Virus record (IMG/VR): IMGVR_UViG_3300031416_000008
Location: 1 to 59,302 of that record
Length of the DNA stretch: 59,302 nt
Origin: a virus
Direction: 5' to 3' (one strand)
Below the pieces are notes generated by a model. The model saw only the letters and a list, made by a program, of their open reading frames with translations, did not search any database and was not told where the DNA came from. The position numbers were made by a program, and so were the translations under genes. Shown piece after piece: positions 9,087-31,973 of this stretch. Position 1 is the first letter of the stretch, and the number at the start of each line of letters is the position of its first letter.

Positions 9087-9431
9087 TTAATCTTCGTTAT
9101 CAGCTGGGGCGGGGTGCTCTGGCACAATAGCGGATACCATGTCCCGTACGATCTCCCGGCGTTTCGGGTCTAAAGACTGGTATTTAAGGACGAGCTTTTC
9201 AGTTTCTTCGTCCAATTCAAGGCCGAAAACGAGCCACAAAGGGCTTACTTTAAAAGCCGTGGCCAACTCGACGAGTGAATCGATACTCGGTTCCTGCTTC
9301 TTTTGAAGGAGCGAATAGATATACGCGTGGTTCTTCCCCGCCAGTATTGACGCGGACCGCATGGTAAGACCTCGTTTCGCCATCAGCTCTTGAAGGCGTT
9401 GTCGCCACATCGAATTATCCATGCGCGACAT
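9087..9431 (-). CDS. CI-like XRE-family repressor (114 aa, no S24 peptidase domain)
   Basis: HTH GLTMRSASILAGKNHAYIYSLLQKKQEPSIDSLVELATAFKVSPLWL. Flanked on both sides by operator-like boxes. Confidence 0.8.
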   Translation of the reverse strand: MSRMDNSMWRQRLQELMAKRGLTMRSASILAGKNHAYIYSLLQKKQEPSIDSLVELATAFKVSPLWLVFGLELDEETEKLVLKYQSLDPKRREIVRDMVSAIVPEHPAPADNED

Positions 9432-9491
9432 TTAGCAAATATTTGCGGTATTTGTAACTGGAAATATGTTGCTGAATAATAATCGTTTTTT

Positions 9492-9524
9492 GCCGATATT
9501 GTATATATCGGCTATTGCCTATAT
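9492..9524. promoter_or_regulatory. Operator box C (9505-9524, inverted orientation) plus GCCGATAT/ATATCGGC palindrome
   Basis: ATATCGGCTATTGCCTATAT is the reverse complement of the box A/B consensus. Lies in the divergent repressor/rightward intergenic region. Confidence 0.55.
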
Positions 9525-9560
9525 CTTCGCCACATTCCTCAGAACTGGTGAAGGTATCCG

Positions 9561-10162: not shown

Positions 10163-10434
10163 AGGATCAATCACGCTCGATCGGAACTGAGACGCCATCA
10201 ACGCCGGTTCAGACTGTTCACGATGCATTGAACAAAGCCGAGGAACTGGCTCATACAGTGCAAAAATTCATGGACGAGTTGTTAGGCTACCGAAACGATC
10301 TGTCCGAGGATTCTTCCGGCCCCGCAGAGGAGGGGATATTTCCCCAGCTCGAAAATCACGCATTTCGGGCAAGGCGCAGCGCATTGATTGCGATAGATCG
10401 AATTGCGGCGGCTCGCGGAGAGCTGGCACAATGA
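10159..10434 (+). CDS. Hypothetical protein (91 aa)
   Basis: ATGA overlaps at both ends. Confidence 0.55.
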
Positions 10435-10691
10435 GCGACGATATCACATCAGAAGCCCAGACAATCGCGGTCGGCCAGCTGCGAGCCTTCATTGAGCGCA
10501 TCGAGCGCCTTGAAGAAGAAAAGAAAACAATCGGCGACGATATCAAGGAAGTCTACGCCGAATTGAAGGGCTCCGGTTTCGATAGCTCCGTTGTGCGAAC
10601 CATTATTCGTCTTCGAAAGAAGGAGGATCACGAGCGGCAGGAGGAAGAAGCCATGCTGCAGCTCTATATGGACGCGCTGGGAATGGGCTAA
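10431..10691 (+). CDS. gapR: GapR / DUF2312 (UPF0335) DNA-binding protein
   Basis: [36 protein letters not shown]...IIRLRKK...[15 protein letters not shown] is the family signature. Confidence 0.8.
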
Positions 10692-15962: not shown

Positions 15963-16883
15963 ATGAGCGAACGACTGACAGAAGAAGAACTGGCACATAT
16001 GACGCCAGCCGAGCGCGAAGGCTATGAACTCATGCTGGCAGAAGAAACCGAGCAGGATGATGACGCCGACGACGAAAACAATGATGCATTGGATGATGGC
16101 GATGATGACGCCGGCGCCATTGACGACGATCAAGAGCTCGGTACCGATGGATCAGAAACGGGGACTGATGCCGCCGCGCCTGATGAGCAGCTCCAAACGC
16201 AAAGCGATGCGCCTGAACTCGCCGCCGCCGCAGATCACGTCAAGTACCCTTATGAAGCACATAAGACAGTCAGTGACTTAAGAGAGAAAATCGAAGCTAA
16301 CGAAGCTCAGCAGAATGCTTTGCTTGAGCAGTTCGATGACGGTGAACTTACTCGCGAAGAATACCAGGAGCAGCTGAAAACGCTCAACGCCGAAAGCCGA
16401 CAATTCGTAAAGGATCAGGCAAAGGCAGAAACCGCGATTGAAGAAGCTGACGCCCGATATTTTGAGGACGTCGGCACCTTCTTGTCCGAGAACCCGATGT
16501 ATAAAAAGGGCGGGCTACTATACAACGCCCTGGACGAAAAGGTTAAGGAGCTGCAGGCTCAATCCGACGATCCGCGTTCTCCCGCGATCATTAGGGAGGC
16601 CCACAAGCAGATTCAGGACGAGCTGGGGCTCAAATCCGATGCTCCGCCTAAGCCAAAGAGCGACGCAAATCCCGCCAAGCAAACGGCAAAACCTAAGCCG
16701 AAGCGCGAAATTCCTCCAAACCTCAACGGTATCCCATCGTCTGATGTGAATGACGCGGCAGACGATAACGGACGGTTCGCTGTCCTTGCGCGTATGGCTA
16801 AATCTGACCCGCTTGAGCATGAAAAGGCGCTCGCAAAGATGAGCGACGCCGAGATGGATGAATATCTACGGTACGGTGGCTGA
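15963..16883 (+). CDS. Scaffolding protein (acidic, helical)
   Basis: Lies between portal and capsid genes. Asp/Glu-rich N-terminus and coiled-coil middle. Confidence 0.6.
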   Translation: MSERLTEEELAHMTPAEREGYELMLAEETEQDDDADDENNDALDDGDDDAGAIDDDQELGTDGSETGTDAAAPDEQLQTQSDAPELAAAADHVKYPYEAHKTVSDLREKIEANEAQQNALLEQFDDGELTREEYQEQLKTLNAESRQFVKDQAKAETAIEEADARYFEDVGTFLSENPMYKKGGLLYNALDEKVKELQAQSDDPRSPAIIREAHKQIQDELGLKSDAPPKPKSDANPAKQTAKPKPKREIPPNLNGIPSSDVNDAADDNGRFAVLARMAKSDPLEHEKALAKMSDAEMDEYLRYGG

Positions 16884-17077
16884 TGCTGTCACTGTCAGTA
16901 CGGATAGGTCAGGCCGTCCAGATCGGGGAGGCGGCTGTTGTAAAGGTCGAGGACAAGCAGGGCCGTGGCGTCAAGCTTGTGTTTGCGACGGATATTTCCC
17001 CGATACGCATCTTGGATGACGGTGTAATCCCGCCACGATTCACTCGCGGGATTACAGGACGGCCGCGCCCGTATTGA
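16883..17077 (+). CDS. CsrA-like small RNA-binding protein (64 aa)
   Basis: MLSLSVRIGQAVQIGEAAVVKVEDKQGRGVKLVF..ISPIRIL aligns with CsrA [41 protein letters not shown]. TGATG overlap with the scaffold stop. Confidence 0.55.
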   Translation: MLSLSVRIGQAVQIGEAAVVKVEDKQGRGVKLVFATDISPIRILDDGVIPPRFTRGITGRPRPY

Positions 17078-17137: not shown

Positions 17138-17273
17138 GTTTGGAATTTTAACAAATCAGCCACTTGCATATTCTATGCAAAGTACGTATATTACGTAATG
17201 CCAGCAAGAAAGGGAAATGAGCTGGTTTAAATATTACAAGTGGAGTCATTCCCAAAGAGGAAGTTACAAACCG

Positions 17274-17519
17274 ATGAAAACTTACAGCTTCTCAGAAATG
17301 AACCGAGCATCCGGTGACATTCTGGATGCAGCTTTGGCGGAGCCAGTAGCTCTGACAAAAAGAGGAAAGGAGAAACTCATTATCGTTTCCACAGACGTGT
17401 GGGAAAAAGTACTAAATCGCGCAAAATCTAAGGCTTACACCCTAGAGAACGCACCTCAAAACAGCTTCGATCAACTTATGGGAGGACTAGAAGAAAATGT
17501 TCGAAACTCCCCCAGATAG
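17274..17519 (+). CDS. Phd/YefM-type antitoxin
   Basis: MKTYSFSEMNRASGDILDAALAEPVALTKRGKEKLIIVS is the Phd/YefM N-terminal fold signature. Confidence 0.7.
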   Translation: MKTYSFSEMNRASGDILDAALAEPVALTKRGKEKLIIVSTDVWEKVLNRAKSKAYTLENAPQNSFDQLMGGLEENVRNSPR

Positions 17520-17532
17520 GGATTAACAACGG

Positions 17533-17937
17533 ATGAAATTCGACGTCGGTGATATTATTGAATACAGTTACCTTTGGGCCCGTGAGGCGGCCAAGGGAGA
17601 GGAGAGCGGGAGAAAATATCGCCCGACATGTATGGTGTTTAAAACGAAAGAGGACCCTGCAAAGCTCTTTCTTTTTCCAATTACTTCTCAAGAGCCCAAG
17701 GACGGACGGCCTTACAAAGTCATCCCACAACTTGAATGTAAAAGGGCGAAGCTAAAATATCCCTCTTACATAATTTTGGACGAGTTTAACGAGGACCGTT
17801 CTGACATGATGTTTGATGTGGGGGATACAAAACCTCGCGGAAGTATCAGTCCAAGTTATCTTGCAGAAGTATCGCAGGGAATTATGGACCACGCGGCAAA
17901 AGTGCGCCCCACTTCAGTGCGACGCACAGCTGTCTAA
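17533..17937 (+). CDS. Putative PemK/MazF-like (SH3-fold) toxin
   Basis: GDIIEYSYLW....GRKYRPTCMV....FPITSQ pattern. Starts 13 nt downstream of the antitoxin. Confidence 0.45.
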   Translation: MKFDVGDIIEYSYLWAREAAKGEESGRKYRPTCMVFKTKEDPAKLFLFPITSQEPKDGRPYKVIPQLECKRAKLKYPSYIILDEFNEDRSDMMFDVGDTKPRGSISPSYLAEVSQGIMDHAAKVRPTSVRRTAV

Positions 17938-17943
17938 ACAATC

Positions 17944-17973
17944 AAAGCCCCTGCTCAGTCAGGGGCTTTTGTT
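17944..17973. terminator. Bidirectional terminator between convergent genes
   Basis: AAAGCCCCTG-CTCAGT-CAGGGGCTTT, with an A-run upstream and a T-run downstream. Confidence 0.65.
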
Positions 17974-18315: not shown

Positions 18316-18426
18316 AAGAATGAGTGTAGACAATTGCGTACATGCAGTAAGGGTTCATCCCCTGAAAATGCCACGAAATCTCGTATTGCAAAGGGTATGT
18401 TTTCCGGGTAATCATTGCTCCAGTTT

Positions 18427-18471
18427 GCGCATGACGTGCTTCTGACCGATTAATCCGGAGAACACGTCATG
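18427..18471 (+). promoter_or_regulatory. Late leader element 1: box GCGCATGACGTGC plus start-codon hairpin
   Basis: CATGACGTG (18430-18438) is the reverse complement of CACGTCATG (18463-18471, which includes the ATG). Confidence 0.6.
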
Positions 18472-19574: not shown

Positions 19575-19593
19575 GCCGCCCATGACGGGCGGC
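19575..19593 (+). other. Hairpin after the capsid gene (no T-run)
   Basis: GCCGCCC-ATGAC-GGGCGGC. Confidence 0.4.
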
Positions 19594-26258: not shown

Positions 26259-26292
26259 TCGTCACCACTTCGTCTGGTACAAATGCAAATAG

Positions 26293-26327
26293 GCGCATGA
26301 CGTGCCTCTTTCGAGAGGATAGTCATG
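26293..26327 (+). promoter_or_regulatory. Late leader element 2
   Basis: Box at 26293-26305. CATGAC pairs with GTCATG (ATG). Inner CCUCU-UUCG-AGAGG hairpin covers the SD. Confidence 0.6.
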
Positions 26328-28067
26328 CCTACAATCAAGCTTGGTGCTTTCACTGGCGAACAGCCCCGTTTGATATCGCGGCTCCTGCCTGCAACCGGAG
26401 CTCAATTCTCGGTTAATACACGGCTCGACGATGGCGGACTGACTCCGTTTAATAGTGCTGTGCAAGAAGCCGAGATTGCCTCCGCCAATGCAAAGACAAT
26501 CGTGAAATTCCAAGGTCAGTGGCTTTCGTGGCCTGGCATTATTCACGCTGCACAGGGCCCAGTGGCGGAGGAACGCCTCTATTACACCGGGGACGGCAAG
26601 CCGAAACTACGCGTTGGAAACACCGTTTATGATTTGGCTGTAGCGCGACCGAACGCGGCGCTAACTGCTACCTTGGGCGGTTCAGGCACTGGCGATGTTC
26701 AGACGCGCATTTACACTTACACTTATGTCACAGATTTGGGTGAAGAGTCCGAGCCGGCTCCTGCATCACCTGCGATTGACTGGAAACCGGGCCAGTCGGT
26801 TACGCTGTCAGGCCTTCAAGCCCCGCCTGCAGGACGTGCAATCACAAAGCAGCGAATTTATCGCTCACAAACCGGCAGCACCGGGACATACTTCTATTTC
26901 ATCGCCGAGCGTGCAGCGTCAGGTAATAATTTCGTCGATAATATCGCGGTCGATGCTTTTCAGGAAATGTTGCCGTCAGTTGCGTGGAATGCGCCACCAG
27001 ACAGCCTGCACGGGTTAATTGCTATGCCGAACGGCATGATGGCAGCATTCGATGGCAAGAAGCTCTATTTCTGTGAGCCGTTCCGTCCTCACGCCTGGCC
27101 GGAAAAATACGTGCTCACGACTGACACCGACATCGTTGGGCTTGGTGCAGTTGGCACGTCACTCATCATCATGACGAAAGCACAGCCGTATCTTGCGTCT
27201 GGTTCGTCTCCCGACGCGATGCAAATGGTGAAGCTGGAAAGCAATCTGCCGTGTATCAATGCGCGCGGCATTGTGGATCTTGGATTTGCGATTGCATATC
27301 CGTCCAATGAAGGTTTAGCGGCAGTTACGGCGAGCGGTGAAGCACGTTTGGTTTCCGGCGATATTATGAGCCGGGATGACTGGCTTGCGACTAATCCGAA
27401 AACAATTATTGGCGGGCAGCTTTCAGGCCGCTACGTGGCGTTCTATGACACACAGGACGCCAACGGCACGCAGATGCGCGGTGCGCTTTTTCTCGATCTT
27501 GGCACAACGCCCTACCTGATCCGGACCAACACCGCCGTCTCAGCTGCTTATTTCGAGATTGAAACCAGTGCCCTGTATTTTCTCGCGAAGGGCGAAAACG
27601 ATATTTATCGAATGGATGCGCCGACCGGCGATAAGGAATCGTACTATTGGAAATCGAAAGACTTCCACACGATGATGCCATTGAGCTATGCGGCCATTCA
27701 GGTTGATACAATCGATTTTGTTTCGCCGCTGGAATACAAGAATTATGAGACGACGAGGGCGCAGGTTTTGGAAAAGAACCAGCAGCTCATAAATTCTAAA
27801 ATTAGCCTGGGCGATTTGAACGCGGCGCCGATCAATCACGTTGCAAGCGGCGGGGACAATCTTCTGCGCCTCCCGACACCCCCGGGGAATGTTCGCGTTG
27901 GTATTTATGCCGACGACAGATTGGTGGCGACAATCACGCGCACCGGCTCACCGCAACGTCTACCGGCGATCAAAGCCACGAAATGGGAAATCGATGTGAG
28001 CGCGAATGTCAGCGTCTCTCAGATCGTCATGTCAACAACCATGGATGAATTGAGGCAAAACGTATGA
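26325..28067 (+). CDS. Large tail structural protein (580 aa)
   Basis: Position and size fit. Beta-rich sequence. Confidence 0.6.
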   Translation: MPTIKLGAFTGEQPRLISRLLPATGAQFSVNTRLDDGGLTPFNSAVQEAEIASANAKTIVKFQGQWLSWPGIIHAAQGPVAEERLYYTGDGKPKLRVGNTVYDLAVARPNAALTATLGGSGTGDVQTRIYTYTYVTDLGEESEPAPASPAIDWKPGQSVTLSGLQAPPAGRAITKQRIYRSQTGSTGTYFYFIAERAASGNNFVDNIAVDAFQEMLPSVAWNAPPDSLHGLIAMPNGMMAAFDGKKLYFCEPFRPHAWPEKYVLTTDTDIVGLGAVGTSLIIMTKAQPYLASGSSPDAMQMVKLESNLPCINARGIVDLGFAIAYPSNEGLAAVTASGEARLVSGDIMSRDDWLATNPKTIIGGQLSGRYVAFYDTQDANGTQMRGALFLDLGTTPYLIRTNTAVSAAYFEIETSALYFLAKGENDIYRMDAPTGDKESYYWKSKDFHTMMPLSYAAIQVDTIDFVSPLEYKNYETTRAQVLEKNQQLINSKISLGDLNAAPINHVASGGDNLLRLPTPPGNVRVGIYADDRLVATITRTGSPQRLPAIKATKWEIDVSANVSVSQIVMSTTMDELRQNV

Positions 28068-29449: not shown

Positions 29450-29487
29450 CGTTCACACCGTAATTTCATTATAAAGGGTCAACCAAG

Positions 29488-29532
29488 GCGCATGATGTGC
29501 TGACACCTGATTAAGTTGAGGTTCACATCATG
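29488..29532 (+). promoter_or_regulatory. Late leader element 3 (covarying copy)
   Basis: Box GCGCATGATGTGC. CATGATGTG (29491-29499) pairs with CACATCATG (29524-29532). Confidence 0.6.
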
Positions 29533-31889: not shown

Positions 31890-31938
31890 ACCCTCTCGCG
31901 TACGCGCGCGAAGCTGTATATAGTCGCCGCGTTCCAAT

Positions 31939-31973
31939 GCGCATGACGTGCTAACCGAGCAGGGTACGTCATG
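31939..31973 (+). promoter_or_regulatory. Late leader element 4
   Basis: Box at 31939-31951. CATGACGT (31942-31949) pairs with ACGTCATG (31966-31973). Confidence 0.6.

Follow-up and report, generated by a model that had tools for sequence, protein, structure and literature searches.

A 13-nt sequence (hereafter the box) recurs in front of five late genes of the virus record IMGVR_UViG_3300031416_000008, whose 59,302 nucleotides (hereafter the window) were analyzed over their full length, and constitutes a real, conserved and structured leader element. As to its function, we hold it about evenly balanced that the box serves the phage's own CsrA-like protein as a translational operator; the protein would open a hairpin hiding the AUG, with activation as the favored outcome. 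The window derives from a temperate podophage or phage-plasmid of the POI1126 (Namazuvirus) type, carrying repA/repB-like partition genes, an integrase and a helix-turn-helix (HTH) repressor-like gene, and displays ~70% DNA identity to Ochrobactrum phage POI1126 and to a 59-kb plasmid of Brucella pseudintermedia. Remoter relatives include Sinorhizobium phage PBC5, the Burkholderia Bcep22 group, Ralstonia GP4-like phages, Pseudomonas phage Skulduggery, and Erwinia phages.

Searching the 59.3-kb window with GCGCATGAYGTGC yielded five exact matches, all on the plus strand, with starts at 18427, 26293, 29488, 31939 and 47188; the mean chance count in dinucleotide-preserving shuffles was 0.01, and none of the 100 shuffles reached five or more copies. 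Allowing two mismatches added nothing above background in the window. A covariance model trained on the leaders of relatives and run over the window with filters off recovered the five copies alone, at 46.4, 42.0, 38.9, 30.4 and 19.3 bits; no sixth copy was found by this model, the remaining matches having E>0.05 except for reverse-strand echoes of palindromic stems. The exact search, the shuffles and the model thus agree with a preceding sequence-only reading of this stretch, which had counted five plus-strand copies with no further full one and had called for a covariance model to be built. Scans of the whole window with Rfam 15 (gathering score) and for tRNAs produced no matches.

Each copy sits in an intergenic gap of the plus-strand late arm, and the distance from the box start to the ATG is 42, 32, 42, 32 and 44 nt for copies 1 to 5, respectively, in accord with the range of 32-44 nt given earlier. 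Copy 1 (GCGCATGACGTGC; 18427..18439; 46.4 bits), which is identical in POI1126, the Brucella plasmid and many relatives, precedes the gene for the N4-gp56-type major capsid protein (ATG at 18469). Copy 2 (26293..26305; 30.4 bits) lies in the leader of a gene for a 580-aa internal virion protein (ATG at 26325); copy 3, a T variant (GCGCATGATGTGC; 29488..29500; 42 bits), precedes the gene for an S74/virion structural protein (ATG at 29530); copy 4 (31939..31951; 38.9 bits) leads into the gene for a 5042-aa DarB-like giant virion protein (ATG at 31971); and copy 5 (47188..47200; 19.3 bits) opens the endolysin/lysis cassette (ATG at 47232). These identities, which rest on homology and the annotation of relatives, with the label of the internal virion protein taken from PHROG, uphold those proposed from the letters.

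To follow the box beyond the window, we gathered relatives from genome and viral contig collections, taking the genes for the capsid, portal, giant and endolysin proteins as search anchors. The box occupies the same five orthologous sites in POI1126 and the Brucella plasmid. Between the window and POI1126, the box is identical at 65 of 65 positions, compared with 65% identity in the 40 nt upstream and 77% between the box and the ATG, a comparison indicating that the box is under purifying selection relative to its flanks. Farther away, the box is found 5′ of the capsid gene in dozens of lineages, with capsid proteins 57-69% identical, and the identical 13-mer precedes the capsid gene in Erwinia phage Stean and 'Microcystis' phage Mwe-JY07. 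The family consensus reads GCGCA-N-GA-(Y)-G-(C)-UGC, with GCGCA and GA essentially invariant, position 6 being T, G, A or C among the relatives and position 9 being C, T or absent, and in deep branches the box reads GC(C/A)CAUAGGA(U/A)GUGC. Bcep22 and most of the distant lineages carry the box at the capsid gene only; in the PBC5 clade and the window clade, it is also present at the fiber, giant-protein and lysis units, and the window clade additionally has it at the internal-protein unit.

Two hypotheses on this distribution were rejected. A tie between the box and the endolysin gene itself does not hold, given that homologous endolysins occur in unrelated phages lacking the box. Position 6 reads A and A in L048, G and G in L049, and T in all four copies of PBC5; concerted evolution of this position inside single genomes, from which a base-specific reader would follow, was discarded in view of contig 3300034072_002238, with A, A and T. 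Other elements were encountered in the relatives as well. The late units of Bcep22 other than the capsid unit (L032, 25000-48000) carry TGGTGCG repeats, often flanking a TATAAT-like hexamer, which suggests that this motif is a separate late-promoter signal in the Bcep22 clade. In L074-L076, a box-like GCGCACGAGUGC or GCGCAUUAGUGC is held in a CGAGC/GCUCG stem ~40 nt past a csrA-like open reading frame (ORF) and is followed by a tRNA-like sequence, not a capsid gene.

The bases lying between the Shine-Dalgarno sequence (SD) and the AUG form a complement to the 3′ half of the box; for the T-type clade, the AUG itself belongs to this complement (CAU pairs with AUG). In copy 1, the 3′ arm CACGTCATG (18463..18471, plus strand, as are all arms below) includes the AUG and contributes 9 bp to a fold with a minimum free energy (MFE) of -19.6 kcal/mol (z -5.07), in which the SD GGAG (18457-18460) lies within an inner CCG/CGG helix. 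Copy 2 (26305..26328; MFE -19.7 kcal/mol, z -4.37) combines a 7-bp helix, GCAUGAC/GUCAUGC, with a 3′ arm (26322-26328) that extends one base past the AUG, and a 5-bp inner hairpin, CCUCU-UUCG-AGAGG (26305-26318), which hides the SD; its tetraloop is UGCG in L011 and hence still of the UNCG class. The 3′ arm of copy 3, CACATCATG (29524..29532), forms 9 bp ending in the AUG (MFE -19.5 kcal/mol, z -3.4), the C-to-U change in the box being offset by a G-to-A change in the arm, while the Brucella plasmid orthologue keeps U opposite G as a wobble. Copy 4 pairs with GTACGTCATG (31964..31973) over 10 bp, including one G.U, again ending in the AUG (MFE -18.8 kcal/mol, z -3.24). Copy 5 has weak 3′ partners, TGCAC and then TTTATGT spanning the AUG (47223..47235), limited to GUGCA/UGCAC plus a wobble-rich GCAUGA/UUAUGU, and its fold is no better than shuffles (MFE -13.9 kcal/mol, z -0.74). 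The AUG is accordingly in a stable helix in copies 1-4, with a probability of being unpaired of at most 0.02, and is not in copy 5; when the box was made unavailable in silico, this probability rose from 0.00-0.02 to 0.6-0.9 in copies 1-4. The claim of box pairing with every one of the start codons is therefore sustained for four copies (z -3.2 to -5.1) and fails for the endolysin copy (z -0.7).

The two arms of the helix change together across the relatives. Thus, GGAGCUGC pairs with GCAGCUCC in L126 and, with a wobble, with GUAGCUCC in L115; GGAUGUGC pairs with GCACAUCC in Bcep22 and L024 and, again with a wobble, with GCACGUCC in L124; GGAGUGC faces GCACUCC in L026 and L114; and CAUGAGUGC is matched by GCACUCAUG in PBC5, CAUAGGAUG by CAUCCUAUG in L134, and GGAGUGUG by CACACUCC in GP4. 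When 32 leaders were aligned with MAFFT, 82.9% pairing was obtained for the six register-stable pairs; their covariation score was 0.268 vs 0.197, and none of 500 shuffles scored as high. Only these six pairs were counted because MAFFT moves the register between T-type, G-type and 12-nt boxes; hence, a register-free duplex test was performed as well, in which 68 unique cognate pairs of box and translation initiation region (TIR) had a mean energy of -10.8 kcal/mol, compared with -8.4 kcal/mol for non-cognate pairs, with none of 10000 permutations as good. Both results are to be read with the relatedness of the sequences and the near invariance of the box side in mind. The pair at box position 9 (pair 9-55) is CG in 13 cases, UA in 7, UG in 3 and GU in 2. 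Both the box and the pairing are thus conserved in relatives, in which the sequence-only reading had proposed to look for their absence, and we consider it very probable that the box acts at the RNA level via pairing with the TIR.

The location of the box relative to promoters bears on what else it could be. A match to TATAAT at five or more of the six positions (A2 and T6 required) is present 4-24 nt 5′ of the box in 41% of 82 unique upstream regions, compared with 2.7% of random positions, a ~15-fold enrichment of -10-like hexamers across relatives with a modal spacing of 11-14 nt. Overall, these hexamers lie 9-20 nt 5′ of the boxes, at variable spacing. In the window, a predicted sigma-70-like promoter of the capsid unit (18386..18414, plus strand), read from the sequence, consists of TTGCAA (18386-18391), a 17-nt spacer and TAATCA (18409-18414), the latter ending 12 nt before copy 1, and likewise read from the sequence, on the same strand, are the -10-like hexamers of copies 2-5, namely, TACAAA at 26278, TATAAA at 29470, TATAGT at 31919 and GATAAG at 47167. 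All five had been pointed out before and were confirmed by position, and the accompanying suggestion that a -10 element lies just upstream of the box gains support from the enrichment in relatives. The output of a simple promoter scan of the window did not contain the weak -10-like hexamers at the boxes. Because such hexamers are enriched just upstream, the start of the box is most likely located 4-13 nt from the 5′ end of the mRNA.

Two variations on the arrangement of the capsid promoter were observed among the relatives. In L018, L021, L096 and L153, an inverted repeat overlaps the -35 element, for example, CCACTGTTT...AAACAGTGG or CAGTGTTTGCAAT..ACAACACT, and is probably a site for a DNA-binding regulator distinct from the box. 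In Mwe-JY07 (L154, 2182-2460), the stop codon TGA of a weak CsrA-like 80-aa ORF falls inside the box GCGCATGACGTGC, and because this leaves no space for a separate promoter, the capsid gene may be read from the csrA-like transcript.

The proximity to promoters raises the question of whether the box could be a DNA site just 3′ of the -10 element, bound by a late regulator or the prophage repressor, with the complement in the AUG region as a second half-site. The presence at every unit of a -10-like hexamer 9-20 bp 5′ of the box, the difference of about one helical turn among the box-to-ATG distances in the window, and the palindromes GCGC, CATG and ACGT within the box would all fit such a site. 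However, the spacing of the arms ranges from 6 to >30 nt in the relatives, that to the -10 element is variable too, compensation through G.U works only in RNA, and the second arm is missing or shifted in copy 5 and in the class II leaders considered below. Furthermore, the orientation of the box always follows the gene, even in divergent pairs (PBC5, L048 and Atu_ph08), and G-type boxes lose the CATG palindrome, rendering a DNA site very improbable. Of the roles that the sequence-only reading had offered, namely, a 5′ stabilizer or processing hairpin, a translational gate and a DNA site, the translational gate is thus strengthened by the covariation and the in silico blocking of the box, whereas the DNA site is disfavored by the variable -10 spacing, the co-orientation and the wobble covariation. 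Two further candidates were rejected: a methylation target (GCGC, CATG and ACGT), in view of the loss of CATG in G-type boxes, and a decoy SD or ribosome standby site, given that only the G-type box (AGGAG) is SD-like and the T, A and C types are not.

The same position immediately 3′ of the promoters of long operons, with a conserved single-stranded motif followed by a hairpin, is shared with the lambda nut site (boxA/boxB) and the HK022 put site, so that the box could conceivably be an antitermination leader for long late operons, including that of the 15-kb gene. Yet, the box bears no resemblance to boxA, the hairpin partner is the translation start region rather than a fixed boxB-like loop, Rfam contributed 0 matches, and no antiterminator gene (N/Q/NusG-like) was detected among 30 ORFs scanned by Pfam. 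Given also that an antitermination leader would not require a hairpin ending at the AUG, and that Bcep22 and most of the distant relatives box the capsid gene only, despite having other long operons, we judge this possibility extremely improbable.

Stable hairpins near the predicted 5′ end would also be compatible with an element that works in cis only, with no factor involved. 5′ hairpins are classic mRNA stabilizers, and the box stem-loop could stabilize the message and/or set a fixed low level of translation, with GCGCA being maintained by another constraint, such as RNase or helicase entry or transcription start context. However, GCGCA-N-GA lies mostly outside the helix and is invariant across non-homologous genes and across alpha-, beta- and gammaproteobacterial phages, the box is kept constant even as its helix partner shifts between the stretch before the AUG and that before the SD, and the predicted single-stranded 5′ tail of 4-13 nt would weaken the protection. 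We thus regard a purely cis-acting hairpin as quite improbable.

As for a trans-acting partner, the proposed one is a CsrA-family protein of 64 aa encoded at 16883..17077 (plus strand), which matches Pfam CsrA (PF02599) with E=2e-4 and 21.7 bits (cut-off 27). The sequence-only reading had overlooked both this gene, located in the same late arm as the boxes, and the resemblance of the wider box family to CsrA binding sites. This ORF is homologous to the gene annotated as 'CsrA-like regulator' directly 5′ of the capsid gene in Bcep22, and RefSeq already applies this label in Bcep22, GP4 and Skulduggery. A profile of 15 phage homologues, 14 of which match PF02599 individually, hits RsmE (2jpp; E=1.2e-11) and CsrA (1y00; E=5.8e-7) over residues 1-45. 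Judged by its sequence, the ORF belongs to the CsrA family. A single-sequence AlphaFold2 (AF2) model predicts the expected five strands, at residues 2-7, 11-14, 18-23, 29-34 and 38-42, with a mean pLDDT (predicted local distance difference test) of only 57.6. Key RNA-binding residues of Escherichia coli CsrA are L2, L4, R/K7, V40, V42 and R44, of which L2, L4 and R7 are conserved in the phage proteins; the subfamily of beta- and gammaproteobacterial phages keeps an R44 equivalent (SVPIxR), and in the window subfamily the sequence is PIRIL, one residue being deleted and the Arg aligning to position 43 or 44.

A CsrA-like ORF is present in every examined box lineage with enough sequence, although weak in L134, L144 and Mwe-JY07 and unannotated in Stean; it usually ends <100 nt 5′ of the box, the usual order being portal, scaffold-like, csrA-like, box and capsid. 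In the window, every late transcription unit has a box except that of the csrA-like gene. An ORF for a Phd/YefM-like antitoxin (17217-17519) and two other small ORFs, among them one for a hypothetical protein of 134 aa (17533-17937), have been inserted there between the csrA-like and capsid genes and are followed by a perfect 10-bp bidirectional terminator-like hairpin (17944-17969); in most relatives, the gene directly adjoins the leader of the capsid gene. A locus search with the CsrA-like protein of PBC5 returned PBC5 itself alone. No protein residues tracking box position 6 could be discerned among the homologues, and none of the 20 early-region and 10 late-arm ORFs scanned with Pfam matched a sigma factor, an RNA polymerase or a NusG/Q/N-like protein. 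Chromosomal csrA is reportedly absent from Sinorhizobium meliloti and Burkholderia cepacia/cenocepacia, which host related phages (PMC7366521), and this argues for phage-internal targets of the phage CsrA. On the available sequences, the CsrA-like protein appears to be a somewhat favored candidate for the factor acting on the box.

The box itself can be compared with known CsrA sites. The consensus obtained for CsrA by SELEX is RUACARGGAUGU, with the GGA 100% conserved and placed in a short hairpin's loop (PMC7652899). ARGGAUGU from this consensus recurs in G-type boxes GCGCAGGAUGUGC, its core AGGAUGU is present in many box variants, and deep lineages have CAUAGGAUGUGC. The same G-type boxes also contain CAGGAUG, which we take to be the repeat unit of the CsrA-sponge RNA CsrB; no sponge RNA of the kind used by Csr systems was found here. 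The box alone folds as GCGC-AUGAC-GUGC (or with a GCA/UGC stem) at -3.1 kcal/mol, with A-N-G-A-(Y) in the loop, and the full-leader MFE structure pairs those bases with the AUG region; the stem letters of this mini-hairpin are invariant and hence uninformative for covariation. GGA is also present in the SDs of copies 1, 2 and 5, ~20-30 nt from the box, and copies 3 and 4 have GAGG/AGGG only, although any SD tends to such letters.

These features resemble those of the CsrA/RsmA leaders of E. coli ymdA, flhDC and glgC and Pseudomonas hcnA, in which, as may be the case for the box, A-N-G(G)-A sits in the loop of a 3-4-bp hairpin closed by C-G/A-U; a second GGA in the SD 20-25 nt away may be a further parallel, and here the gene for a small CsrA-family protein is nearby. 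As in ymdA, the site overlaps a hairpin occluding the ribosome-binding region, and as in flhDC, it is predicted to lie at the very 5′ end. On ymdA, CsrA acts as an activator that opens a hairpin sequestering the SD, and it protects the flhDC mRNA by binding near the 5′ end (PMC7652899). The box differs from these leaders in the additional invariant GCGC 5′ of the motif, the free position 6 and, in the window, the UGA; moreover, the candidate regulator, whose binding is predicted, is encoded by the phage and linked in cis to its targets, in contrast to a global regulator of the host. A hairpin directly past the capsid stop codon, GCCGCCC-AUGAC-GGGCGGC (19575-19593, plus strand), has a loop identical to that of the box mini-hairpin; it is kept in POI1126, L011 and L015, carries an AUGAA loop in L003 and is replaced by ordinary GC hairpins in other clades. 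It may be a sixth binding site, a 3′ stabilizer or an attenuator.

Taken as a translational operator, the box would work as follows. Each of the five late mRNAs would start at its own sigma-70-like promoter, with the box in the first ~20 nt. The invariant 5′ part of the box, GCGCA-N-GA, would be the recognition site for a trans-acting factor, most likely the CsrA-like protein (16883-17077), and the 3′ part, GA-Y-GUGC, the 5′ arm of the hairpin, whose other arm lies just before the start codon or, in this clade, contains it. Without the factor, the leader would fold shut and hide the AUG and often the SD too. The CsrA-like protein would capture the box as it emerges from the polymerase, maybe as a GCGC/GUGC or GCA/UGC mini-hairpin with an A-N-G-A loop, whereupon the AUG hairpin could not close and the message would be translated; the 5′ end might be protected in addition, as it is on flhDC. 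Because the csrA-like gene is located in the one late operon without a box, a feed-forward order can be envisaged, with terminase, portal, scaffold and the CsrA-like protein made first, followed by the capsid, internal proteins, fiber, giant protein and lysis functions. In the plasmid-prophage state, leaky late transcripts would be kept silent.

Box occupancy and hairpin closure are mutually exclusive, which makes activation by anti-sequestration the simplest model, and if the CsrA-like protein is indeed the factor, activation is the direction toward which we lean. The same element and protein could instead bring about repression, with a dimer bridging the box and the SD GGA 20-25 nt 3′ of it or clamping the closed hairpin. 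Bridging of two sites is the commonest mechanism of CsrA, and stabilization of an SD/anti-SD hairpin by RsmA on psl offers a precedent (PMC7652899); in copies 1, 2 and 5, the GGA of the SD is at bridging distance. However, four of the leaders are closed already without a factor, leaving a repressor little to add; produced from the preceding late operon, it would rise when the structural proteins are most needed; and in the closed form, the GA/GGA of the box is base-paired, whereas CsrA prefers single-stranded loop motifs. Repression thus appears unlikely.

Several observations weigh against an operator opened by the CsrA-like protein. The main weakness is that all five boxes of the window read UGA, not the canonical GGA; relatives read GGA, AGA, UGA or CGA there (GGA in Bcep22, GP4, L024, L134 and L138), so that either position 6 is not read or the specificity differs from that of canonical CsrA. 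The window protein belongs to a divergent subfamily, which falls below the Pfam cut-off, has an ambiguous equivalent of Arg44 and differs at the C terminus. In class II leaders (L018, L021, L089-L105, Stean and Skulduggery), the box plus GG pairs with CCGCA(C/U) 5′ of the SD, and the AUG is not hidden; sequestration of the TIR is hence not universal, and in the window, the endolysin copy is hardly sequestered in silico. The gene and the box are both present in every relative, so their co-occurrence cannot discriminate between candidate factors, and no natural 'knock-out' lineage was found among the relatives examined. Finally, most CsrA targets are repressed, not activated.

Phage-encoded control of translation at the start codon has parallels outside the Csr systems. 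The Com protein of phage Mu, a zinc finger with the single target mom, binds within or immediately 5′ of a stem-loop sequestering the SD/AUG of this late gene and opens it for translation; here, by contrast, the candidate has the CsrA fold, with five targets per genome and conservation across the phage group. The MS2 coat protein, acting on the replicase hairpin, and T4 RegA, which controls several messages, are likewise phage proteins recognizing a start-codon hairpin or motif, but they repress, and their motifs and folds are unrelated to those of the box system.

Elsewhere in the window, a terminator-like hairpin, GAGGGGCTTAAGCCCCTC followed by TTT (47100-47125, plus strand), lies directly 3′ of the 15-kb giant gene and ~60 nt before copy 5; this hairpin marks a transcription unit boundary, although it was not in the output of a consensus terminator scan of the window. 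Near the head of the late arm, 5′ of the small terminase gene, a gene for a GapR-like DNA-binding protein was identified (10431-10691, plus strand; Pfam E=3e-33). Between the late arm and the HTH_3 repressor-like gene (9087-9431, minus strand) is an AT-rich divergent control region (9432-9560) with the inverted repeat GCCGATAT...ATATCGGC, which is probably the lysis/lysogeny switch.

The sequence-only reading knew of no described element of this type. This holds in part: the kind of element is known, both as a CsrA-type leader operator and as a TIR-sequestering hairpin, whereas this particular box is apparently undescribed. Among the papers searched, none was on the box or linked a phage CsrA to the phage's own late leaders, and the paper on POI1126 mentions no promoter or motif. 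Phage CsrA/RsmA homologues, such as Bcep22 gp54 and JC1 gp47, which are from the same gene family and the same phage group as the window ORF, have been called 'morons' or host-manipulating, with proposed roles in host take-over, CRISPR repression and nutrient acquisition (PMC9144972, PMC7366521, PMC8450108). Accordingly, the operator, its NGA variant and the phage-internal regulon appear to be new, while the kind of mechanism and the annotation of the protein family are known. More tentatively, and with considerable reservation, it may be proposed that the CsrA proteins of Bcep22/PBC5/POI1126-type phages are dedicated late translational activators rather than host-directed 'morons', with a relaxed A-N-G-A specificity, which ancestrally would have served the capsid gene only and in the alphaproteobacterial phage-plasmid clade came to control every late operon except their own.

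CsrA homologues recur in phages and plasmids, and the roles suggested for them in print concern manipulation of the host. Should the link to the protein fail, the box would still be a well-supported, previously undescribed leader RNA with covariation, in which one 13-mer has been kept although the capsid proteins are ~60% identical. Should it hold, the phage CsrA would have a concrete, testable function on a conserved RNA target linked to it in cis and located in the leaders for capsid, tail and lysis proteins, and a translational layer would be added to the late timing of widespread temperate podophages and phage-plasmids of Brucella/Ochrobactrum, rhizobia, Burkholderia, Ralstonia, Pseudomonas and Erwinia. 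The CsrA-family proteins and operators differing at the GGA would then form a natural series, useful for understanding and engineering the specificity of RNA binding, and the phages would possess a self-contained post-transcriptional late switch that works in hosts without a Csr system.

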